A model generated the notes under the pieces. The model was given only the letters and a program-made list of their open reading frames with translations. It had not been told where the DNA came from and made no database searches. Made by a program: the position numbers and the translations under genes. DNA of 64,000 nucleotides from an uncultured Syntrophus sp. (GTDB taxonomy: Bacteria; Desulfobacterota; Syntrophia; Syntrophales; UBA8958): positions 42,859-106,858 of the forward strand of contig CAZNDG010000006.1 in NCBI GenBank assembly GCA_964571695.1. The letters are read 5' to 3'. Positions 8,910-41,342 of this stretch are shown here, piece by piece (position 1 is the stretch's first letter; the number at the start of each line of letters is the position of its first letter).

Positions 8910-8968
8910 ACGGGGCCGTCATTTTTTGTTGACTTCCCCCCCCTATCGTGTTAAGAGGCGCTGCGTCA

Positions 8969-22616: not shown

Positions 22617-25600
22617 TTAGATATTAAATATCTGCTCCAGCTCTTCTTCGTTGGTGAAGCCGTTGAGATCCACGGCGTTCATCCGGCACGAGGCGGTACA
22701 GACCCCGCATCCCTTGCAGAGGATGGCGTTGACCTCGGCACATCCTTCCACCACATTCACCCGAATGGCGCCGAAGGGGCAGTTTTCCTCGCAGAGACCG
22801 CAGGCGGAGCACCGCTCCTTGTTAACAAAGGCCGTCTTACCTTCCGCCTCGATGAAATCCTTGGTAAGGATGGTGCCGGCCCGGGAAACCGCGGCATTGG
22901 CCTGGACGATGGCGTCCTCGCTGAGTTTCGGGGCGTGCGCCATGCCGCACATGAAGACGCCGTCGGTGGCAAAATCCACGGGGCGGAGCTTAACATGGGC
23001 CTCCAGGAAGAACCCGTCCTGGTTCGTCGGCACCTTGAGCATATTGCCGATGGCCACGTTCTCCGGATTGGGCACGGTACCCACGCTCAGAGCCAGCAGA
23101 TCCGTCTTGAATTCCACGGGACCGTTCATGATGGGATCGAAGACCCGGATGGAGAGTTTGTCGCCCTGCTGAATCACTTCCGGTTTCCGCTCTTCATCGT
23201 AGCGGATGAACCGTACGTTCAGTTCCCGGGCCTTTTTATAGTAATCCTCCTTCAGGCCGAAGGTGCGGATATCGCGGTAGATCACCGTGACTTCCCGAGC
23301 CGGGTCCATCTCCTTGAGCTTCAGGGCGTTCTTCATCGCCTCGGAACAGCAATAGCGGCTGCAATATGGCCGCTCGGGTATCCGGGAGCCAACGCATTGG
23401 ATCATGGTCACGCTCCCCGCCTGGAGAGCCTTGTCGTCCTTCTCGGCTATGAGTTTCTCCAACTCCCGCTGCGTAACGACCTGGGGGGACTGGCCATGGA
23501 GATATTCCGTCGTCTCCAGTTCATAACCGCCCGTGGCCACGATGACGACGCCGTGTTCGAACTGCTCATCTCCATCCCGCGTCGTGATGGTAGTCTTGTA
23601 ATTGCCGATGAAACCTTCTATTTTCGTGATCGCCGCCCCGGCATAGGCATGGATTAGTTTGCTGGCCTGCACCTTTTCCAGTAGCTCCTTCAGATGCTTG
23701 CGGGTATCCAGCCCCTCCAGGGTGTAATAGAGCTTCCGGTAATTGCCTCCCAGAACCGGCTCCTTTTCCACGATATAGGACTCAAAGCCCTGATCGGCCA
23801 GGGAGAGGGCGGCCGTAATTCCCGCCAGGCCTCCGCCGATGATGAGAGCGGCATGATTGACCGTCAACTGTCCCGGTTTCAGCGGTTTGAGGAACTGCGC
23901 CTTGGCGACGGCCATCCGCACGAGATCCTTGGCCTTTTCCGTGGCCGCATCAGGCTCGTGCATATGCACCCAAGAGTTCTGATCGCGAATGTTGGCCATC
24001 TCGAAAAGGTACCGATTGAGCCCCGCTTTTTCGCAGTTCTCCTGGAATAGTCCTTCGTGGGTCCGGGGGGAGCAGGAGGCGACGACGACCCGGGTCAGGT
24101 TCTGTTCCTTGATCACCTCGCCCATCTTCACTGCCGTATCTTGGGAGCAGGTAAAGAGGTTGTCCGTGGCAAAGACCACGTTGGGGAGGGTCTTGCAGTA
24201 TTCGACCACCTCGGGCACTTTGACGACGCCGCCGATGTTGATTCCGCAGTGACATACGAAAACGCCCGTGCGGGGGCCCAGCCCCCGGAGATCCGATTCC
24301 AGGGGGACTTCCTCCTCGGCGATCATGGTCCCCCGTCGGGAAGCCAGGATGCCCGACGCTCGGGCCGCAGCGCCGCTGGCCTCCATGACCGTCTCGGGGA
24401 TGTCCTTGGGGCCGCCGAAGGCGCCGCACACGAAGATGCCCGGCCGGGAAGTCTCCACGGGATTTTCCAGGGCGGTTTTACAGAAGCCGTGTTCTTCCAG
24501 CTCGATGCCCAGGGCCTTCGCCAGTTCCGCCGCCTCGGAAGGCGGGCAGAGGCCTACGGAGAGGACGACCATGTCGAATTCTTCCTCGATGAGACTTCCG
24601 TCTTCCTGGACGTATTTAAGCAACAGGTTCTTTGATTGCTGAAGTTCCTTGATCGTCGAGGGCATGGAGCGGATATAACGAATTCCGTATTCGTCCTTAG
24701 CCCGATTGACGAAGCGGTCGAAGTCCTTGCCGTGGGCGCGGATATCCATGAAGAAAATCGTCGGTTCCAATCCCTTGGCGTGTTCCTTGCCGATGATGGC
24801 CTCCTTGGTGGCATACATACAACACACGGACGAACACCAACTGTTGCCGCAGGAGGTGTCCCGGGAGCCCACGCACTGGATGAAGGCGATTTTATGCGGT
24901 TCACGACCATCGCTGATCCGCTGGACATGCCCGAAATAGGGGCCGGAGGCGGAGAGGATCCGCTCGAACTGGATGCTGGTGACGACGTTTTGATAGATAC
25001 CGTAGCCGTACTCGCCCCGGAGCCGTGCGTTAAAGACTTCGAAGCCCGGGGCGGCGATGACGGCCCCGACCTCGATGGTTTCTTCTTCAAAGGTGTCATC
25101 GTGGTTGATGGCGCCGGCGATGCAGGCATCGACGCACTGGTAGCATTCCGAGCAGATCCCGCAGGCCAGGCATCGCTTCGCCTCCGCCACGGCCTCTTCC
25201 TCGGTGAAGCCGATGCCCACTTCTCGGAAGTTCGTCCGCCGGTCTTCGGGTTTCATGTGGGGATATTTGACCCGGGAAACCTTGGTCACCTGGGAAACGT
25301 CGGCCTTGTCGGCCAGACCCTTGGTCCAGTCCTTCGCCCGACCCGCCGCGACATCCTCGCCTTTCAGATAGCGGTCGATGGACACCGCCGCCTCCTTGCC
25401 CGCATAAACGGCCTTGACGACGGTCTGGGGACCCGTAACGACATCGCCGCCGGCAAAGACGCCGGGAACATTCGAGGCGAAGGTTACGGGATCGACGTCG
25501 AAGTTTTTCCACTTGTTGACGGCAATGCCGCTTTCCTTGGGAACGAAATCGAGATCCGCCTCCTGACCGATGGCGGGAATCAGGGCGTCGCAGGGAACGA

Positions 25601-27050
25601 TGAATTCCGAACCCTTGATCTCCACGGGGCGGCGGCGGCCGCTGGCATCGGGCTCGCCGAGTTCCATGCGGGTGCACTCCACTCCCGTGACCTTCCCGTT
25701 CTCCCCGACGACGCGCTTGGGGGCCACGAGGAATTCCATCTTGATGCCCTCTTCCAGTGCCTCTTCGATCTCCTCGGGAGAGGCGGGCATTTCCGCCCGG
25801 GAACGGCGGTAGAGGATGAAGACGTCCTTGGAGCCCGTACGGATCGCCGTCCGGACGGCGTCCATGGCGACGTTGCCGCCGCCGACGACGGCGACCTTGT
25901 CGCCGAGGAAAACCTTTTCCCCGAGATTAACCCGTTTCAGATAATCGACGCCATGGATGACGCCCTGCATCTCTTCGCCGGGGATATTCAGCTTGCTGCT
26001 GTTGACTGTTCCGCAACCGATAAAGATCGCGTCATATTCCTTCTGGAGCTTATCGAAGGGAATATCCTTGCCGATGGCCTTGTTCAGATGAATCTTGACG
26101 CCGAGGTCCTCGATGACCTTGATCTCCGCCCGGAGGACGTCCTTGGGGAGGCGATATTCGGGGATGCCCACGGCAAGCCAGCCGCCCGCCACGGGGAGGG
26201 ATTCGAAGACCTCCACGTCATAGCCCTCGGCCGCCAGATAGTAGGCGCAGGTAAGACCGGCGGGACCGGCGCCGACGACGGCGATCTTCTTGCCCTTGCT
26301 TTCCTTCTTCTCGGGGATAAAGCGGGTCTCGTCCTTCAGATCCAGATCGGCTACGAAACGCTTCAGGTGCATGATATCAATGGGATCTTCCACTTTACCG
26401 CGCATACACGCCGACTCGCAGGGATGGTTGCACACCCGGCCGCAGACGATGGGGAAGGGATTGTCTTTCTTGATGAGCGCCAGTGCTTCCTTGTACTTAC
26501 CCGCGGCGATGAGGGCCACGTAGCCCTGAACGCTGATGTGGGTGGGACAGGCAGCCTTGCAGGGGGAGGTGCCAAGTTTGTCGATGGCGAAGCCGCTGGG
26601 AATCGCCTGGGGGAACTTGCGATAAGTCGCCTGACGTTCTGAGAGGCCCTCGTTGAAGTCCGAAGGGACATTGATGGGGCAGACCTTGGCACAGTCGCCG
26701 CAGCCGGTGCACTTGTCCAGATCGATGAACCGGGGGGCCTTGGTCATCCGGACCGTGAATTTTCCCGCCTCCCCATCCACGGCATTGACCGTGCGCCGGG
26801 TAAGGATCTCCACGTTGGGATGCCTGCCCACCTCCACCAGTTTGGGGGAGAGGATACAGGCGGAACAGTCGTTGGTGGGGAAGGTCTTGTCGAGCTGGGC
26901 CATGACGCCGCCGATGCTGATGTCCTTTTCCACCAGATAAACCTTCAAGCCGGAATTGGCCAGATCGAGGGAAGCCTGAATCCCTGCGATGCCGGAACCG
27001 ACAACCATCACCGAACCGATTTTTTCATTGTCATTGATCACGAGAGACAC
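22617..27050 (-). CDS. hdrA: Large HdrA-like flavoprotein with an inserted GltD/NfnB-like module
   Basis: PTNDCSACILSP, IQCVGSR, CSSVCC, CGINIG, SCSPRTH plus SPCKAACP..CGRVCNHPCESAC, GAGPAG, GGGNVAMD; start may be GTG at 27041. Confidence 0.92.
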   Translation of the reverse strand: MSLVINDNEKIGSVMVVGSGIAGIQASLDLANSGLKVYLVEKDISIGGVMAQLDKTFPTNDCSACILSPKLVEVGRHPNVEILTRRTVNAVDGEAGKFTVRMTKAPRFIDLDKCTGCGDCAKVCPINVPSDFNEGLSERQATYRKFPQAIPSGFAIDKLGTSPCKAACPTHISVQGYVALIAAGKYKEALALIKKDNPFPIVCGRVCNHPCESACMRGKVEDPIDIMHLKRFVADLDLKDETRFIPEKKESKGKKIAVVGAGPAGLTCAYYLAAEGYDVEVFESLPVAGGWLAVGIPEYRLPKDVLRAEIKVIEDLGVKIHLNKAIGKDIPFDKLQKEYDAIFIGCGTVNSSKLNIPGEEMQGVIHGVDYLKRVNLGEKVFLGDKVAVVGGGNVAMDAVRTAIRTGSKDVFILYRRSRAEMPASPEEIEEALEEGIKMEFLVAPKRVVGENGKVTGVECTRMELGEPDASGRRRPVEIKGSEFIVPCDALIPAIGQEADLDFVPKESGIAVNKWKNFDVDPVTFASNVPGVFAGGDVVTGPQTVVKAVYAGKEAAVSIDRYLKGEDVAAGRAKDWTKGLADKADVSQVTKVSRVKYPHMKPEDRRTNFREVGIGFTEEEAVAEAKRCLACGICSECYQCVDACIAGAINHDDTFEEETIEVGAVIAAPGFEVFNARLRGEYGYGIYQNVVTSIQFERILSASGPYFGHVQRISDGREPHKIAFIQCVGSRDTSCGNSWCSSVCCMYATKEAIIGKEHAKGLEPTIFFMDIRAHGKDFDRFVNRAKDEYGIRYIRSMPSTIKELQQSKNLLLKYVQEDGSLIEEEFDMVVLSVGLCPPSEAAELAKALGIELEEHGFCKTALENPVETSRPGIFVCGAFGGPKDIPETVMEASGAAARASGILASRRGTMIAEEEVPLESDLRGLGPRTGVFVCHCGINIGGVVKVPEVVEYCKTLPNVVFATDNLFTCSQDTAVKMGEVIKEQNLTRVVVASCSPRTHEGLFQENCEKAGLNRYLFEMANIRDQNSWVHMHEPDAATEKAKDLVRMAVAKAQFLKPLKPGQLTVNHAALIIGGGLAGITAALSLADQGFESYIVEKEPVLGGNYRKLYYTLEGLDTRKHLKELLEKVQASKLIHAYAGAAITKIEGFIGNYKTTITTRDGDEQFEHGVVIVATGGYELETTEYLHGQSPQVVTQRELEKLIAEKDDKALQAGSVTMIQCVGSRIPERPYCSRYCCSEAMKNALKLKEMDPAREVTVIYRDIRTFGLKEDYYKKARELNVRFIRYDEERKPEVIQQGDKLSIRVFDPIMNGPVEFKTDLLALSVGTVPNPENVAIGNMLKVPTNQDGFFLEAHVKLRPVDFATDGVFMCGMAHAPKLSEDAIVQANAAVSRAGTILTKDFIEAEGKTAFVNKERCSACGLCEENCPFGAIRVNVVEGCAEVNAILCKGCGVCTASCRMNAVDLNGFTNEEELEQIFNI

Positions 27051-27290: not shown

Positions 27291-27881
27291 TCAAAGGGTC
27301 CTTGCCGCCTCTTCGATGGCCCGCCACAGCAGTTCCCGTCCCTGGCGCGTACGGGAGGAAAAGAGAATGGGTTCCCGGCGTCCGGCGCCGCCGGCCTGCG
27401 CTTCGATGAGGCGCTGGCTCGCCAGGGCCTGCCGGCGGGAAAGCTTGTCGGCCTTAGTCAGGACAAGCTGACAGGGACGGCCTTTTTCCTCCATCCACAG
27501 CAGGAAATTTCGGTCGTCATCCCGGAGTTCCCGGCGGATATCCAGGATCAGGACGATGAGGGCCAGGTTTTCCCTTCCCGCGAGATAGGCCTCCACCATG
27601 GGACCCCAGCTCTGCCTGACCTTTTCCGGCACCCGGGCGAAACCGTAGCCGGGCAGATCGACAAAAAAAAGCTCTTCATTTACCCAAAAGAAATTTATGG
27701 CCTGGGTCCGACCCGGCATCCGGCTGGTCTTGGCCAGATTGCCCCGGTTCGCAAGGGTGTTGATCAGGGTGGATTTCCCCACGTTGGAGCGGCCGGCAAA
27801 GGCAATTTCCGGAAATTGCGGCGGCGGATAATGGGCGGGAAGTAGCGCCGTCTTGACAAACTCCGCGGACCTGATCTTCAT
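27291..27881 (-). CDS. engB: Ribosome biogenesis GTPase YihA/YsxC
   Basis: AGRSNVGKSTLIN, DLPGYG, TKAD. Confidence 0.95.
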   Translation of the reverse strand: MKIRSAEFVKTALLPAHYPPPQFPEIAFAGRSNVGKSTLINTLANRGNLAKTSRMPGRTQAINFFWVNEELFFVDLPGYGFARVPEKVRQSWGPMVEAYLAGRENLALIVLILDIRRELRDDDRNFLLWMEEKGRPCQLVLTKADKLSRRQALASQRLIEAQAGGAGRREPILFSSRTRQGRELLWRAIEEAARTL

Positions 27882-27890
27882 GGAGAGGTC

Positions 27891-29270
27891 TCAATCCCGC
27901 TCGATGGTAAGGCCGTACTTCTCCAACTTGCGCTCGAAGGTAGGCCTTGAGATCCCCAGGATGTCGCACAGATCTCCTTTTGTGCGGTGGCTGTTCTCCT
28001 TGATCACCCTCCGGATGTACTGCTCCTCCACCGCTTCCAGGGTCAGGGGACGGCCGGCGGTGGTCTCAATAGCTTCCCCCCGCTTTTCGTCGTCGGCGGC
28101 CACGGCCTCTTCGGAAAGATCGGGAAAATCACTCCGGGTGAGCACCTGGCTTTTGGCCACCACCACGGCCCGGGTCAGCAGGTTTTCCAGTTCCCGGACA
28201 TTGCCGGGCCAGCGGTAGGACATGAACAGCTCCATCATTTCATCGGAGAGGCCGATGACCTTCTTGTGCAGTTCCCGGTTGATCTTGGCCAGGAGATAAT
28301 CCACCAGAGTCGCGATGTCCTCCCGCCGCTCCCGGAGGGGCGGGAGGCGGATCGCCACGATATTCAACCGGTAATAGAGGTCGTCGCGGAACTTCCCCTC
28401 CTTGACCATCAACTTGAGATCCTTGTTCGTCGCCGTGATGATCCGGGCGTTGACCTTGATGGTATCCTTACCGCCCACCCGCTCGAAATCCATCTCCTGG
28501 AGGACCCGCAGGAGTTTCGCCTGGAGGTTCAGGGACATCTCGCTGATCTCGTCGAGAAACACCGTCCCGTATCGGGCCAGTTCGAATTTACCCAGTTTGC
28601 GGGTGATGGCCCCGGTAAAGGAGCCCTTTTCGTGGCCGAAGAGTTCCGACTCCAGGAGGGTTTCCACAATCGCCGAGCAGTTGACGGCGATATACGGTTC
28701 CTCGGGAGACGTATTGTTATGGATAACCTTGGCGATCAGTTCCTTCCCGGTGCCGCTTTCCCCCTGGATTAGCACCGTGGTCCGGCTCTGGGAAACTACA
28801 CCGATGGTCTTGAAGATCTCCTTCATTTCCTTTGTGTTGCCGATGATGTCGCCGACTTTGAAACTCCGTGAAGGTTCGTTGAGCAAACCGCTGATCTTCT
28901 TTTCCATCTCCAGGGTCTTCAGGGCCTTCTTGATGGCCATGTCCAGCTCTTCCACGTTGATGGGCTTGTGAATATAATCGAAGGCCCCGCCTTTCATGGC
29001 TTTGATGGTGGAATCCATATCGTGATAAGCGGTGATCATGATCACCTTCACATTTTCTTCCTCCTCCCGCAGATCTTCCAGGACGGTGAATCCGTCGATG
29101 TCGGGGAGGCGGATATCGAGAACGACCAGGTCGGGGGCGTGCTTCACGAAGGCATTGAGGCCGTCGGTTCCCGTGGCGGCAGTGTAAACCGTATATCCTT
29201 CTTCCGTCAGGTAGAGGTCGAGGCTTTCCGCGATGGAACTATCGTCGTCAATGACCAGAATTTTTGCCAT
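27891..29270 (-). CDS. Sigma-54-dependent response regulator (NtrC family)
   Basis: Receiver (IDDD, LDIRLP), GESGTGKE, ELFGHEKGSFTGA, RDDLYYRL, C-terminal HTH. Confidence 0.95.
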   Translation of the reverse strand: MAKILVIDDDSSIAESLDLYLTEEGYTVYTAATGTDGLNAFVKHAPDLVVLDIRLPDIDGFTVLEDLREEEENVKVIMITAYHDMDSTIKAMKGGAFDYIHKPINVEELDMAIKKALKTLEMEKKISGLLNEPSRSFKVGDIIGNTKEMKEIFKTIGVVSQSRTTVLIQGESGTGKELIAKVIHNNTSPEEPYIAVNCSAIVETLLESELFGHEKGSFTGAITRKLGKFELARYGTVFLDEISEMSLNLQAKLLRVLQEMDFERVGGKDTIKVNARIITATNKDLKLMVKEGKFRDDLYYRLNIVAIRLPPLRERREDIATLVDYLLAKINRELHKKVIGLSDEMMELFMSYRWPGNVRELENLLTRAVVVAKSQVLTRSDFPDLSEEAVAADDEKRGEAIETTAGRPLTLEAVEEQYIRRVIKENSHRTKGDLCDILGISRPTFERKLEKYGLTIERD

Positions 29271-29294
29271 TAGGGGCTCCTGATATATGATTGC

Positions 29295-31328
29295 TCAGAC
29301 GTCCAGAGGCAGGGTGATCACAATCTTTGTGCCCTCGCCTTTTCTGCTTTCGACATCGATGTTGCCCTTGTGAAGGTCGATGATCTTTTTCACCTGGGTC
29401 ATACCCAATCCTGTTCCATATCGTTTCTGGGTGAAAAAGGGATTGAAGAGGTGGGAAAGGGCCTCCTCGTCCATGCCGCAACCGTTGTCGGCAATCTCCA
29501 AGGCAACGGCGTGGGGCTCGGCGCCGTTGTCCCGAACGGAGATCCGCAGTTGCCCGCCCTCCTCCATGGCATCCACGGCGTTCCGGAAGATGTTCTGGAA
29601 AACCTGCTCCATCATGGCGCCGTCGATGTTCGGATGGGGAAGTTCCTCCGCCATCGTGATCATGACGGCGATATGTTTGTCGGTAACGGACTTTTCCACC
29701 ATCTCCAGGGCGTTTTCTATGGTGCGCCTCAGATCCGTGGGCATGCGCTTCGGTTCCCCCGGTTTGGCGAAAATCAGGACATCGTTGACCAATTCCTCCA
29801 GATGTTCGACCTCCCGCTGGGCGATCCGGAATCGTTTCAGGTCGTTTCCCGTGGGTTGCAGGCGCTTTTCGAGAATTTGCAGACTCATCTTTATCGAGGA
29901 GAGGGGATTGCGGACCTCATGGGCGATCCCGGCGGAGAGCTGACCGATGGCCGCCAGCTTCCGGCTTTCATAATACTTCTTTTCCAACTCCTTGAATTCG
30001 GTAATCTCCCGGCGGACCATGACATACCGGTCCGCCGAACCCTTGAGGGGACAGGGAGTGATGAGGAGATACTGCCTGCTGCCGTCCCGGGCGGTCACTT
30101 CCATTTCAAAGGGCTTGAAAACGCCTTTTTTTATTTCCTGCCATTTTTCCAGGAGAAACTCTTTATGCGCCGGGGCGTACTCGGTAAAATGCTTCCCTTT
30201 GATCTGCGCCGCCTGCATGCCGTCATGGCTCCGGTCGCGACTGGCGAAGGTGATGATGCCCTCGCTGTTCAGTTCGAAAAGGGTGTCCGGAGAGCTTTCC
30301 AGGACCGCTTGCATGTAGTTGTACAGCCCCTCGATCTCCTGGCGGAGCCGGATGTTCTCCTTCAGTTCGTTCTCCAGGGTTTCGGCGTATTCCTTGAGGT
30401 GCATGGACATCTCCTCTTCCCGTGTGATGTCCTGCAAGGTCTCGACGGCGGCGATGATCTCCCCCCTGTCGTCGCGAATCGGTGCGGCAAGGAAATAGAG
30501 GTGCCGATTCCGGCCGCCGATGTTCGGGTAAAAATCCCAGGCTTCGTAAGCACCCTCGATGATCGGCGATTTTTGGACGTTTTTCTTTCCGTAGTACTTT
30601 TTCAGACTCTCTATATCGTCATCGACGATGAGGTCGGCGATTACCGGGCGTTTTTCCGGATAAAAGGGGACGTACTGGCGGTCCGTCCCGATGAAATACT
30701 TGCCCTCGTAACCGCTCAGTTCGGTAAAGGCCCGATTCCAGAACATGATATTGTGATCTTTGCCGATTACAAACATGGGGATGGGCGATCCCTCGATGAT
30801 ACCCTCGATGGTCTTGCGCAGGGTGATGTTCTTTTCCAGCTCCTCCCGGATATTCTCGGCGTATTCCTTGAGGCTGAGCTCCATGACCCTTTCCCGGGTT
30901 ACATCCTGAAGGGTCTCGACGGCGGCGATGATCTCCCCCTGCTCGTCGTAGATGGGGGCGGCAAGGAAATAGAGATGGCGGCTCTGCCCTCCCAGATCGA
31001 TGTAAAAATCCCGAGCCTCGTAAGCCCCTTCCACCTTCACGGATTTACGGACCCGTTTGGAACCGTAGAGCCTCTCCAGTGATATGATGTCCTGATCGAC
31101 GATCAGATCGGCAATCAGCGGCCTTTTGGTCCCATAAAAAGGCATGTAATGTCTGTCCGTACCGATCATATCGCCGGCGGCGAAGCCGGTGAGTTCCTCG
31201 CAGGCCCGGTTCCAGAAGATCACTTCGTGCTTCCGGTTGATGACAAAGGTCGGGATGGGAGAACCCTCGATAATGCCGACGATTACCTTCCGTTCCTGGA
31301 CAAGCTGTTCTTCGACGGCCTTAGTCAT
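29295..31328 (-). CDS. Soluble PAS-domain histidine kinase
   Basis: Two near-duplicate PAS modules plus a third PAS, AHEVRNPL H-box, DNGCGM, FFT, GTGLG; no transmembrane helix seen. Confidence 0.93.
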   Translation of the reverse strand: MTKAVEEQLVQERKVIVGIIEGSPIPTFVINRKHEVIFWNRACEELTGFAAGDMIGTDRHYMPFYGTKRPLIADLIVDQDIISLERLYGSKRVRKSVKVEGAYEARDFYIDLGGQSRHLYFLAAPIYDEQGEIIAAVETLQDVTRERVMELSLKEYAENIREELEKNITLRKTIEGIIEGSPIPMFVIGKDHNIMFWNRAFTELSGYEGKYFIGTDRQYVPFYPEKRPVIADLIVDDDIESLKKYYGKKNVQKSPIIEGAYEAWDFYPNIGGRNRHLYFLAAPIRDDRGEIIAAVETLQDITREEEMSMHLKEYAETLENELKENIRLRQEIEGLYNYMQAVLESSPDTLFELNSEGIITFASRDRSHDGMQAAQIKGKHFTEYAPAHKEFLLEKWQEIKKGVFKPFEMEVTARDGSRQYLLITPCPLKGSADRYVMVRREITEFKELEKKYYESRKLAAIGQLSAGIAHEVRNPLSSIKMSLQILEKRLQPTGNDLKRFRIAQREVEHLEELVNDVLIFAKPGEPKRMPTDLRRTIENALEMVEKSVTDKHIAVMITMAEELPHPNIDGAMMEQVFQNIFRNAVDAMEEGGQLRISVRDNGAEPHAVALEIADNGCGMDEEALSHLFNPFFTQKRYGTGLGMTQVKKIIDLHKGNIDVESRKGEGTKIVITLPLDV

Positions 31329-31503
31329 GCCGCTCTTCCCTCTTTTTCTTCTCCTTGTGCTCCTTGACAGCCATCAGGACGTAAACGCCCACGGCGGCGC
31401 TGAGCGAGATGATAAGATTGACCAGTCCGCTTTCTATTCCGATTACCCGCTGGCATATCAACCACACCACCAGATAGGTAACGGCCGTCAATATTTCTTG
31501 CAT
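31321..31503 (-). CDS. 60-aa hypothetical membrane protein, first gene of the kinase operon
   Basis: Two hydrophobic segments and a charged tail; GAAGGGG RBS; stop overlaps the kinase ATG by 8 nt. Confidence 0.6.
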   Translation of the reverse strand: MQEILTAVTYLVVWLICQRVIGIESGLVNLIISLSAAVGVYVLMAVKEHKEKKKREERHD

Positions 31504-31557
31504 TATCGAACCCCTTCAGGATATTGTGTTATGTTAGGATCAGGTTGCATTCTATTG

Positions 31558-31586
31558 ATCCTACTTGTGTCCGGGCAAAATTTCAA
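31558..31586 (-). promoter_or_regulatory. Sigma-70 promoter of the small protein-kinase-regulator operon
   Basis: TTGAAA-N17-TAGGAT. Confidence 0.6.
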
Positions 31587-31636
31587 TAAAAATGTGCTTA
31601 CGGCAAGAATCATGCGGGCGCCGGGGCCGGAATTTG

Positions 31637-31675
31637 ACATTTCATTCAATCGGCGCCGTCGATTGAATGAAATGT
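31637..31675. promoter_or_regulatory. Perfect 16-bp inverted repeat, candidate enhancer (UAS)
   Basis: ACATTTCATTCAATCG-N7-CGATTGAATGAAATGT, centred about 125 bp upstream of the sigma-54 -24 element. Confidence 0.6.
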
Positions 31676-31780
31676 TCAACGGCGGCAGGCCTGCTCCTAA
31701 AGCGTACGGGGGGGGACAGGAACAAATTTACTAAATGGTTGTCGATTCTTAAGGGGCGCCGGCGGTGGGGCCGCCGGCCA

Positions 31781-31796
31781 TGGCACGGCTGTTGCA
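31781..31796 (+). promoter_or_regulatory. Sigma-54 (-24/-12) promoter of atpE paralog 2
   Basis: TGGCAC-GGCTG-TTGCA matches TGGCAC-N5-TTGC(A/T). Confidence 0.85.
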
Positions 31797-31898
31797 GTTC
31801 CCGGCGCAGTTTGAAAAAATTTCCCTTCCCCAGGCATGTGAACTGTGTTAAGGAAGGGAAAAAAGATCATAAGTTAACACATGAAAGGAGAAGAAAAG

Positions 31899-32279
31899 AT
31901 GTTAGGGAAATTTGGAAAGAAGTTGTTAACGCTCATGACCACGATGGCAGCGGTACTTTTATCCTCACCGGTCGTATTCGCGGCGGGAGAGGCTTTACCG
32001 GGTGCGGGTGAGTCTTACGTGAAGGTCATTTATGCGGTCGGCGCTATGGTGGCCGCCGGGTTCGCCATCGGGCTGGGCGCGATTGGCGCCGGCGCCGGTA
32101 TCGGTAATGCCGCCAATGGGGCCTGTCAGGCCGTCGGAAGAAACCCCGGGGTGCAGGGAAAGATCATGACCGTGATGCTCGTCGGCATGGCCATGGCGGA
32201 ATCCGTTTGTATTTATGCCCTGGTTGTGGCGCTGGTTCTTCTCTATGCCAACCCCTACGTAAAGTACTTTTTGGGTTAA
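31899..32279 (+). CDS. atpE: ATP synthase F0 subunit c (paralog 2) with N-terminal extension
   Basis: GAGAGIG, RNPGV loop, AMAESVCIY, LYANP; AAAGGAG RBS. Confidence 0.95.
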   Translation: MLGKFGKKLLTLMTTMAAVLLSSPVVFAAGEALPGAGESYVKVIYAVGAMVAAGFAIGLGAIGAGAGIGNAANGACQAVGRNPGVQGKIMTVMLVGMAMAESVCIYALVVALVLLYANPYVKYFLG

Positions 32280-32330
32280 TCCGACCGATGAAATTAACTT
32301 CAAAATGAACTACAGTTAGGGGGAAAAAGA

Positions 32331-33644
32331 ATGTCAGAGAAGAAACAAGATAAGCAGTTTTTCACTGTCGCGAGGGTATTCTTCCTGCTTATCGTAATCC
32401 CCTTATCACTGATGGCGATCCTCATCGCCAATGGGATTTTCAAATTAGGGGTTACAGTAAAAGAGCGGGCTGTGACCGTTCTGGACCAGAAATCTCAGGA
32501 AGAAATCAAGATACGGGCCATGAACATCGCAGATGAAGTGGCAAGTTTCCTTACGGAACGAAAGAAAGACGTCCTCATCGCCACGATCATCCCGGCCACC
32601 GAATCTGCGTACAAACAGTTTGTCAGCGAGAACCGGCGGAACGTCTGGATCAAGGATGGCGACAAGTTGAAACAGATTTCCGTCCCCGTTTATACGGAGA
32701 TGGCCCTCATTGACAAAAGCGGCAACGAGGTCATCAAGATTACCAACGGAGAAATCGCCCCCAAATCCCGGCTTACCAATGTGGGCATTCCGGCCAACAC
32801 CACCTATAAATCGGAAACCTATTTCGCCTCGGCCAAGGCCTTGAACAAGGGTGACGTATTTGTCTCCCCGGTGACGGGCTGGTATGTTAACCGAGCCGAT
32901 TTCGAAAAAGGCAAGAGATTCTCAGGGGTTATTCGTTTCGCCACCCCGCTGTACGGCCGGGAAGGTCTTCAGGGTGTCGTTCAACTCGCCCTCGACTATC
33001 GCCATCTCGCCGCCTACACGGATCATGTGATTCCCACCCAGGCCACTCCGGTATTCGAAGCGGACGCCGCCACCGGGAATTACGCCTATATGGTGGACAA
33101 TCGGGGTTTGATGATTTCCCATCCCAACGATTATCACGTCGAAGGACTTTATCCCGACGGAAAGCCGGTACCGGCCCTGACGGAACAGAGCTCGGCGGAA
33201 CTTACGAAAAAGGGCGAAGAGGTGCTGAATCTGAACCTCATGGGTTTTGTCGATCCCAATCTGCCGTTGATCGCCAAGGACGCCGCTTCGGGAAAACCGG
33301 GGATCAAGACCTATAAGTTCGCTGGACATACCAAGTTCGTTGCGTATGCGCCGATCAAATTCTTTGCCCATGATTATCCAGCGCCGGGAGGATTCGGCTG
33401 GATCGGCATGGGAGTAGATGTGGAAAAATTCAACGAGTCTGCCACCCAGGCAACCCAGAACATCCAGAAGGAGGCGAAAGCCTGGTCCACCACGATCATC
33501 CTGATCCTGGTTATATCCATCATCCTTCTGTTTGCCATCGCCGGATTGCTCTCCCGGGGCATTACCCGCTCCATAGAGGCGGAAGTCCCGGCCGACTCCC
33601 AGGGTGAAGGCCCATTCTATGATGACGAGGAAGAAGATAAATAG
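32331..33644 (+). CDS. Two-TM membrane protein with Cache-like extracytoplasmic domain and no cytoplasmic output domain
   Basis: TM near N-terminus, YAYMVDNRGLMISHPN and KFVAYAPI..GWIGMG Cache-like motifs, second TM, short acidic tail. Confidence 0.8.
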   Translation: MSEKKQDKQFFTVARVFFLLIVIPLSLMAILIANGIFKLGVTVKERAVTVLDQKSQEEIKIRAMNIADEVASFLTERKKDVLIATIIPATESAYKQFVSENRRNVWIKDGDKLKQISVPVYTEMALIDKSGNEVIKITNGEIAPKSRLTNVGIPANTTYKSETYFASAKALNKGDVFVSPVTGWYVNRADFEKGKRFSGVIRFATPLYGREGLQGVVQLALDYRHLAAYTDHVIPTQATPVFEADAATGNYAYMVDNRGLMISHPNDYHVEGLYPDGKPVPALTEQSSAELTKKGEEVLNLNLMGFVDPNLPLIAKDAASGKPGIKTYKFAGHTKFVAYAPIKFFAHDYPAPGGFGWIGMGVDVEKFNESATQATQNIQKEAKAWSTTIILILVISIILLFAIAGLLSRGITRSIEAEVPADSQGEGPFYDDEEEDK

Positions 33645-33656
33645 AAACTCTTAACG

Positions 33657-33690
33657 AAAAAGGCCGGATTTGATCCGGCCTTTTTTTTTT
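33657..33690 (+). terminator. Rho-independent terminator
   Basis: AAAAA-GGCCGGAT-TTG-ATCCGGCC-T10. Confidence 0.92.
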
Positions 33691-33803
33691 CCCTCAACCA
33701 AGGGACCGAACATCTTTCCGTTTGACTTCATTATTCATTATTGATAAATGTCCCCGAGTATTTCTTAATGCCTCGACAAACATCTATACACAGGAGGAAT
33801 TAC

Positions 33804-36212
33804 ATGAGCGACAACAGATTGGTAATCTGGTTCGATGAATTGCAGCTTTCCGATATCCCCCAAGTAGGAGGGAAAAACGCGTCCCTGGGAGAAATGCGTC
33901 GCGAATTGATCCCCAAGGGGGTCAGCATTCCCGACGGATATGCGGTAACCGCGTACGCCTACCGCTATCTGCTCGAATCCGCAGGGATTATCGAGCAGAT
34001 CAAAACGGTTCTTTCGGACCTGGACACCCACAACATCGAAAATCTCAAAAAAAGAGGCCAAAAGGTGCGGGAACTCATCTACAACGCCCCCTTCCCCGAT
34101 GACCTGACCGCCGCCATCATCGCCGCCTACAGGAAGCTTTGCGAGGAATACGGGGAAAACACCGATGTGGCCGTCCGGAGCTCGGCAACGGCGGAGGATC
34201 TTCCCGATGCCAGTTTTGCCGGCCAGCAGGAAACCTATCTGAACATCACCGGTGACGAGGCCCTGCTCGAGGCCTGCAAACGCTGTTTCGCCTCCCTATT
34301 CACGGACCGGGCGATATCCTATCGCGTGGATAAAGGATTCGATCACCTTTCCATCGCCCTCTCCATCGGCGTCCAGAAGATGGTCCGTTCCGATCTCGCC
34401 GCCTCCGGCGTCATCTTCTCCATCGACACGGAATCGGGATTCAAGGAAGCGGTCCTGATCACCGGGGCCTACGGACTGGGAGAGACGGTGGTTCAAGGAA
34501 CGGTCAACCCCGATGAATTCTACGTCTTCAAACCGGCGCTGAAACAGGGCTACCGGCCCATCGTCCAGAAGAAACTGGGTACCAAGGAGATCAAGATGAT
34601 CTACGCGGAGCGCCGGGGCGGAGAGGCCACCGAGACGGTGTCGGTTCCCGTGGAGCAGCGGCGCAAGTTCTGTCTCGATGATGACGAGATTCTGCAACTG
34701 GCCCGGTGGACCACCATCATCGAGGATCATTACTCCCAGCAGGCCGGTTATTTCAAACCCATGGACATCGAATGGGGCAAAGACGGCCGGACGGGGGAGC
34801 TCTTCATCCTCCAGGCCCGGCCGGAAACGGTCCAGTCCCAGAAGGATGCCAACGTCCTGGAAAACTACATCCTCCTGGAACATAATAATCCCCTGGTTAC
34901 GGGCACCGCGGTAGGCTCCAAGATCGGCGCCGGACCGGCGAACATCATCGAATCCGTGGAACAGATCATGAATTTCAAGAAAGGCGAGGTGCTGGTGACG
35001 GACATGACGGATCCGGACTGGGAACCGGTCATGAAGATCGCCGCGGCCATAGTCACCAACAAAGGCGGCCGGACCTGTCATGCCGCCATCGTCAGCAGGG
35101 AACTCGGCGTACCCTGCATCGTCGGCACGGAAAACGGGACCACGGCCCTCAAGGGTGTCAAGGAAGCCACCGTGTCCTGCGCGGAAGGCGAGATCGGCAA
35201 CGTCTATGAGGGCATCCTGAAATTCGACGTCCAGCGGGTGGACGCTAAGAATCTTGAGCGCCCGAAGACGATGATCATGATGAACGTGGGCAATCCGGAA
35301 AACGCCTTCAACCTCGCCGCCATTCCCAACGACGGCGTCGGTCTGGCCCGGCTGGAGTTCATCATCAACCAGTTCATCAGCATCCACCCCATGGCGCTGA
35401 TCCAGTTCGATAAGGTCACCGATCCGGCCATCCGGGAAAAGATCGCCGCCCTCACCCACGGCTACGACAACCGGGCCGATTTCTTCGTGGACAAGCTGGC
35501 CCAAGGGGTGGCCAAGATCGCCGCCGCCTTTTATCCCAACGACGTCATCGTCCGGATGAGCGATTTCAAGAGCAACGAATACAAGAACCTCATCGGGGGC
35601 CAGTATTTTGAAATGGATGAGGAAAACCCCATGATCGGCTTCCGGGGGGCCTCCCGGTATTACGACGAGCGATACCGCGACGCCTTCGCCCTGGAATGCG
35701 AGGCGATGAAAAAGGTGCGCAACGAGATGGGCCTCGTCAACGCCAAACTGATGATCCCCTTCTGCCGTACCGTGGAAGAGGGGAAAAAGGTCGTGGCCCT
35801 CATGGCGGAAAAAGGGCTGGTCCAGGGCGAAAACAATCTGGAAATCTACATGATGGTGGAGATCCCCAGCAACGTCATCCTCATCGAGGAATTCGGCAAG
35901 ATCTTCGACGGCTTCTCCATCGGCTCCAACGACCTTACCCAGCTCACCCTGGGTCTCGACCGAGATTCCTTCCTCATTTCCCATATCTTCGATGAGCGCA
36001 ACCAGGCCGTCATGGATCTGATCCGGATCGCCATCACCAAAGCCAACAAGATGGGAAAGAAGATCGGCATCTGCGGCCAGGCCCCCAGCGATTATCCCGA
36101 ATTCGCCCGCTTCCTCGTGGAATGCGGGATCAGCAGCATCTCCCTGAACTCCGACACGGTCATCAAGACCACCATCGACATCAAGGAGACGGAGAAGACG
36201 CTGGGGAAATAA
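33804..36212 (+). CDS. ppsA: Phosphoenolpyruvate synthase (pyruvate, water dikinase)
   Basis: VGGKNASLGEM, VRSSATAEDLP, DIEW, RTCHAAIVSRELG, FSIGSNDLTQL; AGGAGG RBS. Confidence 0.97.
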   Translation: MSDNRLVIWFDELQLSDIPQVGGKNASLGEMRRELIPKGVSIPDGYAVTAYAYRYLLESAGIIEQIKTVLSDLDTHNIENLKKRGQKVRELIYNAPFPDDLTAAIIAAYRKLCEEYGENTDVAVRSSATAEDLPDASFAGQQETYLNITGDEALLEACKRCFASLFTDRAISYRVDKGFDHLSIALSIGVQKMVRSDLAASGVIFSIDTESGFKEAVLITGAYGLGETVVQGTVNPDEFYVFKPALKQGYRPIVQKKLGTKEIKMIYAERRGGEATETVSVPVEQRRKFCLDDDEILQLARWTTIIEDHYSQQAGYFKPMDIEWGKDGRTGELFILQARPETVQSQKDANVLENYILLEHNNPLVTGTAVGSKIGAGPANIIESVEQIMNFKKGEVLVTDMTDPDWEPVMKIAAAIVTNKGGRTCHAAIVSRELGVPCIVGTENGTTALKGVKEATVSCAEGEIGNVYEGILKFDVQRVDAKNLERPKTMIMMNVGNPENAFNLAAIPNDGVGLARLEFIINQFISIHPMALIQFDKVTDPAIREKIAALTHGYDNRADFFVDKLAQGVAKIAAAFYPNDVIVRMSDFKSNEYKNLIGGQYFEMDEENPMIGFRGASRYYDERYRDAFALECEAMKKVRNEMGLVNAKLMIPFCRTVEEGKKVVALMAEKGLVQGENNLEIYMMVEIPSNVILIEEFGKIFDGFSIGSNDLTQLTLGLDRDSFLISHIFDERNQAVMDLIRIAITKANKMGKKIGICGQAPSDYPEFARFLVECGISSISLNSDTVIKTTIDIKETEKTLGK

Positions 36213-36359: not shown

Positions 36360-36743
36360 GAGGAGGCCGTAAGCCGAGTTCTGTTCCGGCTCCGGGTCAC
36401 CCCGGCCGCCGGCGATGATCATTCCTCTAGGGCGGCAGTTGCCTGCCGCCTCAAGCGACCTACCCGAGAACCTCGGGCGGGCCGCCCTCGGTCGTTCTCC
36501 TATTCGGTCTTGCTCCGGATGGGGTTTACCATGCCTCCCCTGTCGCCAGCGGAGCGGTGAGCTCTTACCTCGCCTTTTCACCCTTACCCGCCACGGAGCG
36601 GCGCTCCAGAACGCGGGCGGTATATTTTCTGTGGCACTTTCCTTGGGGTCGCCCCCAGTCGCCGTTAGCGACCATCCTGCCCTGCGGAGCTCGGACTTTC
36701 CTCCCGTCCGGACTTGCCGGACCAGCGATCATCTGTACTCCTC
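36360..36743 (-). ncRNA. rnpB: RNase P RNA, class A
   Basis: GAGGAAAGTCC, AAGTGCCACAGAAA and ACAGAACTCGGCTTA conserved regions; complementary GAGGAG/CTCCTC ends. Confidence 0.97.
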
Positions 36744-37467
36744 AAACATTTTCCTTGTTCTGGTCATACCAGTAGATAATCCGGCGGCAGTTGGGACACA
36801 CCATGAGATCTTCCGTATCTTCGAGCAATTCGTTGTAGAGTTGGGGAGGAATGCTCATGTGACAGCCGTCGCAGGTTTCCTTCCAAGCGGAAACCACCGC
36901 CAGGCCCTGATTTACGTTTTTGGTCATATCATATCTTTTCAATAAGTTCTTCGGAATTTTTTCCCGCAGGGACTCCCCTTGGCGCTGCCGTTCCTGAATC
37001 TGTGATTCTATGGAACCGATCCGATTTTCCAGCCTTTCCCTTTCCTCCTCGTATCGCCGCCCGGCCGACTGGAAGTCACCTTCCCGGATCGCCAGGGAGG
37101 TCTTCATGGCGTCGATCTCTTCCAGAATGGAGATGATCTTGTCTTCCACCACGCCGTGTTTCTGTTCCAGGGTCTCTATTTCTTTCAGCACCGCCTGATA
37201 CTCCTTGTTGGATTTCACCTCATGGATGCGGTCCCGGGTTTTCCGGAGTTGCTCCATACCTTTCTTTAGGGCCTCTTCCAGTTCCCGGTGGTTTTGGTTC
37301 TTCGCCTCCAACCGGTTTCTTTCCTCCTCCAGCGCCTCCCGGACGGCGGCAAAGTCCGCGTCGAGTCTGGCCAGACGCAGTGGGAGATCTTTCCTGCTCT
37401 GGAGGACTTTCTGCGTTTCCGTATCGATCTTTTGCAACGCGATGAGATGCATCAAATTTTCGTTCAA
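36742..37467 (-). CDS. C4-type zinc ribbon / coiled-coil protein (DUF164-like)
   Basis: LIALQKID, long coiled coil, C-terminal CDGCHM..CPNCRRI. Confidence 0.88.
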   Translation of the reverse strand: MNENLMHLIALQKIDTETQKVLQSRKDLPLRLARLDADFAAVREALEEERNRLEAKNQNHRELEEALKKGMEQLRKTRDRIHEVKSNKEYQAVLKEIETLEQKHGVVEDKIISILEEIDAMKTSLAIREGDFQSAGRRYEEERERLENRIGSIESQIQERQRQGESLREKIPKNLLKRYDMTKNVNQGLAVVSAWKETCDGCHMSIPPQLYNELLEDTEDLMVCPNCRRIIYWYDQNKENV

Positions 37468-37788: not shown

Positions 37789-39540
<1,752 letters not shown>

Positions 39541-39554
39541 AAAAATCCTCCACC

Positions 39555-41342
39555 TTATCCATTCGACAGCATGGATTTCTCTTTTTCAATAAGCTCTGCC
39601 TTCTCCGCGAGCAGCGTCCGGCAGGATTCCATGTCCATGGCCTGTTGAGCCCTGACCAGGGACACGTTCAAAGACCGGCGCTTCTCCTTGAACCACTTGC
39701 GTTTTATCTGCCGGATCATGTCGCGGCATACCCGGTCCGCGGTTTCCCCCTCCCAGGACACGGAATCGACCAGCCGGCCCAAAATCGCCTCTCTCAGCGC
39801 TCCGGGGCCGAGGCGGGCGATGAAATCCTCCAGATCGATCCCCCCATGCCGCTCATATTGTGCCGCCGCCGCCGTTCCCAGTCTTTTCAGTTCGTCGTTT
39901 TGCAGGTAGCTCAAGGCATCGCCGGTAATAACGGCGGGCATCATGCGGGGATGATCGAGAAGCAGGGCGATGAAGCTCGCCTCGAGGGCATCCACGGCGA
40001 CGGTGGATAGGAAGGTTTTTCCCCCCGCTTCCGGCCCCGCAGTCTTCTTTCTCCGTCCCCGGTTCACTTCCGCCTTGAGGACATCCTCATCGACGCCCAG
40101 CCGCTGGGCCACGCGCTTGATGAAGAGATTTCTCTCCGCATCGCTCTCCATATTTCCAATAAAGGCCATGGCGGCGCGGAGGGCTTCCCTGCCGCCCTCC
40201 ATGGACTCGGGGTTGCCGATAAAGCTATCCACGTAATACTCCACCGCCGGGGGCGCCGCGGCCACCAGGGCCAGGAAGGCCTCCCTCCCCGAGCCGCGGA
40301 CATAGTCATCGGGATCCGCGGCCGCAGGGAGCATCACCGCCCGCATGGGGAGGTTGCCCTCGACAAACAGCGCCAGGCTCCGGGCCAGGGCCTTTTTCCC
40401 CGCCTCGTCGCCATCGAAGACGACGGCCGCTTCCGGGGCATATCGGCGCAGAAGATCCACATGATCCCGGGTAAGGGCGGTGCCCAGCGTGGCCACGACA
40501 TTCCTGATGTCGGCGTTCCAGAGGACAAGAAGATCGAAATAACCCTCCACCAGGACCGCGTAACCGCTTTTCCGTATCTCCTCCCGGGACTTGACAAGTC
40601 CGTAAAGGTTCTTCCCTTTGCTGAAGAGCGCCGACTCGGGGGAATTGAGATATTTGGGCATTCCCTCCCCCATGATGCGGCCGCCGAAGGCGATGATCTG
40701 GCCGGACTGATCTTCGATGGGAAAGACAAGGCGGCCCCGGAAACGGTCATAGAAGTCCCCCCGCTCGTTTTTCGCCAGGAGGCCCGCCTGCTCGGCAAGG
40801 TCAAGGGACATTCGCTTCCGTTCCAGATAATCCCGTAGGTGACGCCAACCCGGCGGGGAATAACCCAGGCGAAATTCCTTTACGACCGCCTCGCTTATGC
40901 CCCGCTCCCGCAGGTATTGCCGGGCCGCGAGACCTTCTTGCCCCTCCAGACGTTCGGAAAAAAACGCCGCGGCCAGTCCGTGCAGCCGGAGCATCTTTTC
41001 CCGAAGGGACAGCTCCCCCTTTTCCTTATCGCTCAGGGTCCGGGTGGGAAGGGAGACGCCCGTTTTCCGCGCCAGATACCTCATGGCCTCGGGAAAGGAG
41101 AGGCCGTTTTGCTTCATGATGAAGGTTACCGCGTTTCCCCCTTCCCCGCAGCCAAAGCAGTAAAAGATCTGTTTTTCCGGACTGACGGTAAAAGAAGGCG
41201 TCTTTTCCTGATGAAACGGGCACAGGCCGATAAAATTCCGCCCCGCCTGCTTCAGGTTCACGTAACCTGCCACCAGATCCACGATGTTGATCCGTCTTTT
41301 GATTTCATCGATCTTGTCTTCAGGAATCGAACCTTGCATCAT
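39555..41342 (-). CDS. dnaG: DNA primase
   Basis: [15 protein letters not shown] zinc finger, KYLNSPE, VEGYFD, FDGDEAG, DPDD. Confidence 0.97.

Follow-up and report, generated by a model that had tools for sequence, protein, structure and literature searches.

A candidate sigma-54 circuit, conserved across the Syntrophales, for conditional expression of a second F-type ATP synthase c subunit

The composition of the c-ring, which sets the ion-to-ATP ratio of the ATP synthase and its coupling to F1, is generally treated as fixed for a given bacterial species. In eukaryotes, c-subunit isoform genes (mammalian ATP5MC1-3; Atp9-5 and Atp9-7 of Podospora anserina) are expressed under different conditions. 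For the Syntrophales, the free-energy changes available are worth only fractions of an ATP, and the ATP synthase is often run backwards to drive reverse electron transfer. Here we describe a locus in 64,000 nucleotides of DNA from an uncultured Syntrophus sp. (GenBank assembly GCA_964571695.1, contig CAZNDG010000006.1, positions 42,859 to 106,858 of the forward strand; this whole stretch is the window) in which a lone paralog of the F-type c subunit, c2, shares an operon with a stand-alone sensor protein and faces a divergently encoded two-component system. Syntrophus aciditrophicus possesses an H+-specific F-type enzyme plus an N-ATPase, a second F-type ATPase encoded by the operon atpDCQRBEFAG, and the membrane partners AtpR and AtpI have been proposed to interact with the c subunit (Dibrova et al. 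2010, PMC2881411). The window resembles the N-ATPase case in presenting a second c subunit in the same kind of organism, but c2 does not belong to an atpDCQRBEFAG operon and is without the helix-1 Glu typical of N-ATPase c subunits. We read the locus as a dedicated sigma-54 circuit, conserved across the Syntrophales, for the conditional expression of a second F-type c subunit, and on the sequence evidence we assign this statement as a whole a probability of roughly 0.5.

The locus consists of two divergent transcription units separated by a palindrome and a promoter. An initial annotation, made from the letters alone, had proposed a leftward operon of a 60-amino-acid (aa) membrane protein, a soluble PAS kinase and an NtrC-type activator with a GSFTGA loop, facing a consensus sigma-54 promoter, a second atpE paralog, a Cache gene and a strong terminator near 33657, and our analysis recovered all of these parts where it had placed them:

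27891-29270, minus strand: NtrC-family response regulator and sigma-54 enhancer-binding protein, 459 aa, from its Pfam domains
29295-31328, minus strand: soluble histidine kinase, 677 aa, with three PAS domains, HisKA and HATPase_c (Pfam)
31321-31503, minus strand: p60, a conserved 60-aa protein with two predicted transmembrane (TM) helices, from its open reading frame (ORF)
31637-31675, between the divergent units: palindromic upstream activator sequence ACATTTCATTCAATCG-N7-CGATTGAATGAAATGT, a 39-bp inverted repeat
31781-31796, plus strand: sigma-54 (-24/-12) promoter TGGCACGGCTGTTGCA, exact consensus
31807-31898, plus strand: 5' untranslated leader of about 92 nt, from the predicted transcription start to the c2 start
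31899-32279, plus strand: c2 (AtpE2), F-type ATP synthase c-subunit paralog, 126 aa, PF00137 at 62.5 bits (cut-off 24)
32331-33644, plus strand: stand-alone dCache sensor protein, 437 aa, two TM helices
33656-33696, plus strand: intrinsic terminator closing the c2-Cache operon, stem-loop and T-run

The promoter is the sole exact match to TGGCAC-N5-TTGCW in the 64 kb, where 0.01 matches are expected and 1 of 100 shuffled sequences reached it, and it places the predicted start of c2-Cache transcription near 31806-31807. The palindrome likewise matches once, with none expected; its centre lies about 126 bp upstream of the GG of the -24 element, and we presume that it is the binding site of the NtrC-type regulator. 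The window also holds another c-subunit gene, c1, and the atpZIB genes, and its only sigma-54 site and only palindrome are both at c2-Cache. At the far end of the operon the terminator has a 14-bp stem (33656-33686, six GC pairs, a loop of 3) followed by a T-run. A search with the consensus of integration host factor found no site between enhancer and promoter, and the number of its matches in the window as a whole was at chance level.

Comparison with relatives, which covered the window plus 6-10 kb of flanking sequence in each related genome, indicates that this arrangement is conserved among the loci examined. Searching with a profile built on the Cache protein gave 80 loci, each from a different species and titled as Syntrophus, Syntrophaceae, Smithella, Smithellaceae or Syntrophales; their identities to it range over 60-98%. 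Wherever the sequence exists, c2 lies immediately 5' of the Cache gene (72 of 72 loci), and a relaxed -24/-12 element with invariant GG and GC is found 91-145 nt upstream of the c2 start in 70 of 71, against a background expectation of 0.0016 per -150 to -85 zone; in the sole exception, a variant -24/-12 element has a spacer of 6 nt. In 50/60 loci the kinase and regulator are encoded next to c2-Cache and divergently from it, the regulator orthologs in this equivalent position being 72-93% identical, and p60 is divergent and within 1.5 kb of c2 in 59 of 69. A strict form of the palindrome, TTTCrTTCAA-N13-TTGAAyGAAA, occurs 116-141 nt upstream of the promoter in 32/70 loci and is virtually absent elsewhere in the 1.68 Mb of locus sequence, and degenerate forms are visible in further loci and clades. 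Loci in which unrelated genes (mnmG, or a GntR/TRAP cluster) replace the two-component system still keep both promoter and palindrome, and the most divergent clade within the family (63% identity) retains the layout. Synteny across the Syntrophales had been set beforehand as one point on which the annotated circuit could fail; these counts uphold it, and they lend the proposal of a two-component, sigma-54 circuit acting on a second c subunit comparative support throughout Syntrophaceae- and Smithellaceae-type genomes.

In the leftward operon, the regulator bears all the features of a sigma-54 activator. It scores above the Pfam cut-offs for Response_reg (106.5 bits), Sigma54_activat (224.8), AAA_lid_14 (90.1) and HTH_8 (22.8), and its translation shows the GSFTGA loop and the receiver Asp in DLVVLDIRLPD, so that it combines the receiver, the AAA+ sigma-54 interaction domain with a GAFTGA-type loop and the C-terminal Fis-type helix-turn-helix of the NtrC class. 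Its top NCBIfam model is AtoC, at 475.4 bits; because the cut-off is 714, the regulator is not an AtoC equivalog, and the kinase similarly fails the equivalog test for AtoS (263.2 bits against 646). The kinase has neither a hydrophobic N-terminus nor a membrane segment, and its first two PAS domains (PAS1, residues ~9-148; PAS2, ~166-308) form a tandem duplicate of an unusual long type of about 135 aa, which gives a weak match to the MmyB-like ligand-binding domain (25.8 bits against a cut-off of 26.3). The p60 reading frame overlaps the kinase start by 8 nt at its 3' end and stop. p60 matched no Pfam or NCBIfam family; it is kept in 60 related loci with a near-invariant core, MQE(I/L)LTA.TY...WL.C......IESGL..L..SL, and ends in a charged, mostly basic tail. 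From the conservation of these elements together, we consider it very probable that the wiring runs from kinase to regulator, palindrome, sigma-54 promoter and c2-Cache.

Between promoter and c2, the leader contains a candidate hairpin in which a CU-rich segment (31820-31829) pairs with a GA-rich one (31852-31861), as well as a conserved TGTGTTA motif. Pairing between a CU-rich and a GA-rich stretch is possible in most of the orthologous leaders of c2 as well, with a near-invariant TGTG(Y)TA/ATGTTA between the two. The leader of the window folds only 1.3 standard deviations better than shuffled sequences (z = -1.29), which does not establish the hairpin statistically, and RNAalifold returned no consensus structure for 33 orthologous leaders. 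A known riboswitch was also considered and ruled out, since an Rfam scan of 31300-32400 at E <= 1 matched no family. GGA motifs in the 3' arm and the Shine-Dalgarno sequence could point to CsrA-type or other translational control.

The presumed target of the circuit has the sequence features of a rotor subunit. c2 starts at ATG 31899, with GGAG 8 nt upstream (an in-frame ATG at 31881 is without a Shine-Dalgarno sequence), and its N-terminus comprises a signal peptide that looks cleavable and a conserved periplasmic tail. It shows the hallmarks of subunit c, namely a hairpin of two helices, the first rich in glycine and the second bearing a carboxylate, with an R-(Q/N)-P loop, and its alignment with the c subunits of Spirulina and chloroplasts needs no gaps; its closest solved structures are the c1 of Acetobacterium woodii (4bem_J, the best match), Spirulina c15, chloroplast c14 and I. 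tartaricus c11. On the TIGR01260 model it scores 43.1 bits, marginally below the cut-off of 43.95, and c1 scores 48.3, above it. Assignment of c2 to the N-ATPase was rejected (TIGR03322 61.3 against 130.85; no helix-1 Glu; a lone gene with the Cache gene). A tblastn search of the window found exactly two c genes, c1 and c2, which are 61% identical to each other, and the Fo genes lie apart from both:

3242-3616, minus strand: c1, the other c-subunit gene, a lone gene (tblastn, ORF)
8948-9253, plus strand: atpZ (Pfam ATPase_gene1, 59.1 bits)
9213-9608, plus strand: atpI (ATP-synt_I, 60.3 bits)
9612-10271, plus strand: atpB (ATP-synt_A, 191.3 bits)

Upstream of c1 is a sigma-70-like promoter (TTGACA…TATATG), and c1, like c2, has a signal-peptide-like N-terminus and a conserved periplasmic N-terminal tail. 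It has 2604 homologs of similar length (~120-129 aa), and c subunits bearing signal peptides seem to be the rule in this group. No atpE or c-like ORF follows atpB in the window; three tandem Hsp20 genes (10631-11074, 11093-11500 and 11572-12075) come directly after it. In one related genome (L088), the c1 ortholog is divergent from ahbAB-like genes, hemL, atpZ, atpI and atpB, a layout common to it and the window, and again no atpE follows atpB; in a third genome c1 is once more a lone gene. From these positions we take c1 to be probably the housekeeping rotor subunit of the F-type enzyme and c2 its conserved paralog. The annotated role of c2 as an alternative c subunit is plausible on this basis, because atpZ-atpI-atpB carry no atpE in the window or in L088 and both c genes stand alone.

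What separates the two paralogs became clear from 120 orthologs of each, those of c2 being at least 71% identical. The two families have in common the helix-1 glycine spacing, the R-N-P loop and the helix-2 Glu-Ser…Tyr, and in c2 the GxGxGxG motif, the RNP loop and the Glu/Ser/Tyr ion site are invariant in 120/120 sequences. Ten alignment columns distinguish the families, each residue being present in more than 80% of the sequences. RNP is followed by E/D-A in c1 and by G-V in c2 (120/120), the ion-binding Glu is preceded by Thr or Ile in c1 and by Ala in c2 (120/120), and near the ion site helix 1 has Gln in c1 and Asn, Thr or Ser in c2, along with a Cys that is invariant in c2 (120/120). The paralogs diverge too in the periplasmic N-terminal tail of the mature protein and at the C-terminus, and their mature forms differ in mass as well as in sequence. 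The fixed differences are found in the loop on the cytoplasmic side, next to the carboxylate and at the periplasmic ends. The RNP-adjacent loop of c contacts gamma and epsilon in known enzymes. Strict retention of the ion site and RNP loop suggests that c2 works against an a subunit and F1, and the altered loop suggests that its coupling to gamma/epsilon may differ.

Two further distinctions between the paralogs were considered. A difference in ring size cannot be argued from the glycine motif, whose positions are identical in c1 and c2; the annotated step to c-ring size and the ions-per-ATP ratio finds no backing in the sequence, though ring size may still differ. The second, which was rejected, was Na+ specificity or an ion switch between c1 and c2, judged by Gln32, Glu65, Ser66, Thr67 and Tyr70 in I. 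tartaricus numbering (the reference sequence used here is consistent with the PDB alignment). Both subunits have the Glu, Ser and Tyr, and neither has Gln32 or Thr67: position 32 is Ile in c2 and Leu or Met in c1, and position 67 is Val or Ile. Since the residue at the Gln32 position is hydrophobic, both subunits look proton-specific.

The Cache protein was correctly located by the initial annotation and treated there as a passenger of the operon, yet its architecture and relatives suggest a detached sensor. It runs from TM1 through a long stalk helix and a double Cache fold of two PAS-like modules to TM2 and an acidic tail (…YDDEEEDK), ending 25 residues after TM2, and no transmitter domain is present in the same polypeptide. 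Pfam dCache_1 scores 29.6 bits, below its cut-off of 45; in an AlphaFold2 model of moderate confidence (pLDDT 70.5), the double PAS-like periplasmic fold between two TM helices that defines dCache is evident, and Foldseek matches the model with probability 1.0 and E values down to 1.9e-11 to the sensor domains of HK1S-Z8, Mlp24 and PctA/B/C. Within the Syntrophales the mean column identity is 78-80%, TM1 is nearly invariant, and the pocket region contains invariant His and Asp residues. In the periplasmic domain (residues ~45-385), the conserved D222, H225, H232, D245, D256 and H264 are candidate sensors of a ligand or of protons. An exhaustive HMMER search of 1.84 billion representatives found the nearest relatives outside the family to be sensor modules of histidine kinases, methyl-accepting chemotaxis proteins and GAF/HAMP proteins, all of which carry transmitter domains.

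Two of these relatives are particularly informative. The first, P0362, is 54% identical to the Cache protein over residues 8-416, with a near-identical TM1, and continues after TM2 into a PAS domain followed by GAF, PAS and a kinase core. That post-TM2 PAS domain is 47% identical to PAS1 and PAS2 of the window kinase, in an alignment that begins at kinase residue 11, and PAS domains of this kinase type were found in only 3 of 150 Cache relatives. Judged by sequence, this fusion ties the Cache protein to the adjacent kinase in Rosetta-stone fashion. The P0362 locus (L089, 6424-19417) also contains a hybrid response-regulator kinase, a single-domain response regulator and two Usp genes, and it lies inside an Mrp/Mnh (or Mbh-like) antiporter cluster. 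The second relative, P0363, is 40% identical, stand-alone and equipped with a matching acidic tail, and Arg15 of TM1 is absent from it; a c1-type c-subunit gene precedes it, and rnfA/E-B-C-D-G-E/A and nfnAB-like genes follow. In L091 and L097 (L097, 9414-18706), which represent a second deltaproteobacterial lineage, genes for a c subunit, Cache, rnf, nfnAB-like proteins and a DRTGG protein share one orientation, to all appearance a compact cluster of ion-motive and electron-bifurcation genes. In four Syntrophales loci (L035, 7598-7975; L036; L048; L050), a c1-type gene is convergent directly downstream of the Cache gene, and both c paralogs thus flank it.

Three other short relatives were checked for a neighbouring c gene: P0365 gives no usable context (a 2-kb contig whose upstream fragment is not a c subunit), P0368 is a Cache-HAMP protein beside an ABC transporter, and P0392, a Cache-HAMP kinase in split form, has a sigma-54 regulator of its own and a transporter of the CitMHS type. 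Because these other short relatives have no c gene nearby, the pairing with c is specific to the stand-alone Cache type with an acidic tail. A specific contact of TM1 and Arg15 with the c-ring, as proposed for AtpR, was also considered; it is weakened by the sharing of TM1 with the kinase P0362 and by the absence of the Arg from P0363. These comparisons mark the Cache protein as a detached sensor module with two ties, one to the kinase through a domain fusion and one to c subunits through a gene pair conserved across two lineages.

From the anatomy of the locus, the conservation of every one of its DNA and protein elements and the paralogy of c1 and c2, we propose the following mechanism. The soluble PAS kinase, co-produced with p60, would phosphorylate the NtrC-type regulator, which would bind the 39-bp palindrome, some 140 bp ahead of the -24/-12 promoter, and activate sigma-54 RNA polymerase. 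The resulting bicistronic mRNA would encode c2 and the stand-alone dCache membrane protein. Exported by means of its signal peptide and processed, c2 would either enter the c-ring of the single F-type Fo, mixing with c1, or replace it; the atpZIB cluster of that Fo, which has no c gene of its own, would normally use the separately encoded c1. The glycine packing motif of the rotor would stay as it is, and c2 would alter its F1-facing loop and the surroundings of the proton-binding Glu. That c2 enters F1Fo seems to us somewhat more probable than not, since the invariance of motif and ion site in 120 orthologs would be hard to explain without an a subunit and F1. The Cache protein would serve as a detached periplasmic input module, most likely signalling to the PAS kinase and closing a positive feedback loop, possibly through p60, whose basic tail would meet the acidic Cache tail, and it may contact the c-ring as well. 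We hold the coupling of Cache to kinase only tentatively, at somewhat less than even odds. As to the signal, we speculate that it is an ion- or pH-related cue, a suggestion that arises from the recurrence of the module beside c-subunit, Rnf and Mrp genes and from the invariant His and Asp of the pocket.

Several observations weigh against this proposal. The housekeeping status of c1 is itself inferred from the window and the relatives' flanks, and the remaining genome could include an N-ATPase operon. The change from EA to GV beside RNP in all c2 orthologs could mean altered coupling to F1 or none, and the glycine motif that c1 and c2 share means that a change in stoichiometry is not arguable from sequence. 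Eight of the 60 loci carry no adjacent two-component system. Finally, the P0363 locus has sigma-70-like promoters and no two-component system within 10 kb; since this lineage keeps the c-Cache pair without a kinase, the pairing of c with Cache is older and wider than that of Cache with kinase, which favours a direct relationship between c and Cache.

The main rival explanation builds on that last point and holds that the Cache protein acts on the rotor, as an accessory of the c-ring, and that the two-component system merely sets the amount of the pair. The protein could be an assembly factor resembling AtpI/UncI, or it could regulate the ring in a ligand-dependent manner by binding to a periplasmic crown of conserved N-terminal tails, those of the c subunits with signal peptides. 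Persistence of the c-Cache pair beside rnf in a second lineage, at 40% identity and with no kinase nearby, favours this explanation, as do the c1-type genes beside the Cache gene in the four Syntrophales loci and the periplasmic segments, conserved and family-specific, with which mature c1 and c2 begin. Both lineages of stand-alone Cache proteins keep the acidic tail (DDEEED), and the c2 loop has lost its acidic residue. However, the conserved TM1 is shared with the fused kinase P0362 and is hence not specific to the c-ring, all other relatives are signalling proteins, and the Rosetta-stone link points to the kinase. Regulation of an ATP synthase is not known for any dCache protein, and our literature searches found no such case. 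We regard action on the rotor as unlikely, at about one chance in four in our estimation, and it is compatible with Cache signalling to the kinase, the two being not mutually exclusive.

A bolder form of this idea is a direct contact between the dCache protein and the c-ring through which the rotor would respond to a periplasmic ligand, with c2 as the isoform tuned for such control; the contact would be made by the TM helices, the acidic tail or the periplasmic crown of c N-termini. We consider this improbable. If it is true, syntrophs could answer an external chemical signal (pH, a cation or a metabolite from the partner, for example) both by swapping rotor subunits and by gating or re-gearing the ATP synthase, and the recurrence of the module beside c-subunit, Rnf and Mrp genes would reflect one sensory input governing the ion-motive machinery.

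The place of c2 in F1Fo can itself be questioned. c2 and Cache might form an autonomous membrane complex outside F1Fo, for example a c-ring scaffold or an ion-conducting sensor element: c2 is never beside other atp genes and is always co-transcribed with the Cache protein, as predicted from gene order, its F1-facing loop is altered in all orthologs, and it falls just short of the NCBIfam ATP_synt_c cut-off (43.1 against 43.95). Yet strict conservation of Glu/Ser/Tyr and RNP is expected only if c2 meets an a subunit and F1, and the presumed housekeeping c1 is also a lone gene far from the atp genes, which makes genomic isolation normal for c genes in this group; we therefore rate an autonomous complex as highly improbable. 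Equally improbable is a functional equivalence of c2 and c1, in which the circuit would only raise c dosage beside an unrelated co-regulated sensor: it would fit the shared glycine motif and H+-type ion site (Ile/Leu at the Gln32 position, Glu-Ser…Tyr) and the mammalian c isoform genes whose identical mature products differ only in regulation, but ten family-distinguishing columns, with the loop Gly and Val, the pre-Glu Ala and the helix-1 Cys all fixed in c2, and paralogs kept apart since before the radiation of the order argue for distinct functions.

Genes around the locus complete its description:

27291-27881, minus strand: engB/yihA-type GTPase (MMR_HSR1, 75.3 bits), 9 nt downstream of the regulator

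This GTPase gene is probably the last of the leftward operon and is retained downstream of the regulator in most loci; we regard it as a neighbour and claim no functional link. Beyond it lies the gene for a 1477-aa protein (22617-27050, minus strand) with four pyridine-nucleotide-disulphide oxidoreductase stretches and several 4Fe-4S domains, which resembles a fused HdrA/NfnB-like protein and adjoins engB in relatives too, including the 63% clade. On the other side, past the terminator that follows the Cache gene, is a gene for PEP synthase (pyruvate, water dikinase; 33741-36212, plus strand), kept in 30/57 loci. A coiled-coil zinc-ribbon gene of the CT398/HP0958 family (36742-37467, minus strand) lies upstream of rpoD (37789-39540) and dnaG (39555-41342); members of this family are reported sigma-54 binders, which may or may not bear on the circuit.

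A sensor-controlled second rotor subunit in about 70 species, with fixed differences at the F1-contact loop and the proton site, would make a long-standing question testable, namely whether a bacterium can retune its ATP synthase to conditions, and the circuit proposed here would give bacteria that live at the energetic limit a hitherto undescribed means of altering that enzyme. The system offers a defined regulatory unit (kinase, regulator, palindrome and promoter) with a single predicted local target, and the partner of the orphan dCache protein, whether kinase or c-ring, is experimentally identifiable. The gene clusters for c subunits, Rnf and Mrp may possibly have a common sensory input.

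The locus had not been recognized as a described system, and our search of full-text, open-access literature agrees, having found no description of this system among papers on lone regulated atpE paralogs, sigma-54 control of ATP synthase or the Syntrophus ATP synthase. Its regulatory half is closest to AtoS/AtoC-atoDAEB of E. coli, with which it shares a divergently placed regulator composed of REC, AAA+ with GAFTGA and HTH_8, a kinase next door, a palindromic enhancer some 100-150 bp upstream of a -24/-12 promoter, and AtoC and AtoS as the best NCBIfam models. The window kinase departs from this model in its solubility, its three PAS domains and its translational coupling to a membrane protein of 60 aa, and the target is a rotor subunit with an orphan sensor, not a catabolic operon. 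The F1Fo of A. woodii (c1 plus c2/c3; PDB 4bem) likewise has more than one kind of c subunit in a single bacterial F-type rotor, but its c genes are all in the atp operon and its c1 is a duplicated four-helix subunit with one ion site, whereas c1 and c2 of the window are single hairpins encoded by lone genes, one of them under separate sigma-54 control. The eukaryotic c isoforms differ in that their genes are nuclear, the mature mammalian proteins are identical, and no sensor system or partner is co-encoded. The Cache protein resembles the dCache_1 sensors (HK1S-Z8, Mlp24, PctA/B/C, TlpC) in its fold and in its topology of TM helix, stalk, two PAS-like modules and TM helix, but it is without a transmitter, only 9-16% identical to the solved domains and paired with a c gene. 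In being a membrane protein encoded with an Fo gene it recalls the AtpI/UncI chaperone, which interacts with c subunits (as cited in PMC2881411), but it is unrelated to that protein in sequence and fold and has a 340-aa periplasmic ligand-binding domain. The parts of the system (an NtrC-class two-component system, a sigma-54 promoter, an F-type c subunit and a dCache sensor) are thus standard and their arrangement is not: as read from these genomes, what is new is a lone c paralog under its own two-component and sigma-54 control, joined to a transmitter-less dCache protein, in a setting where atpB is without an atpE.

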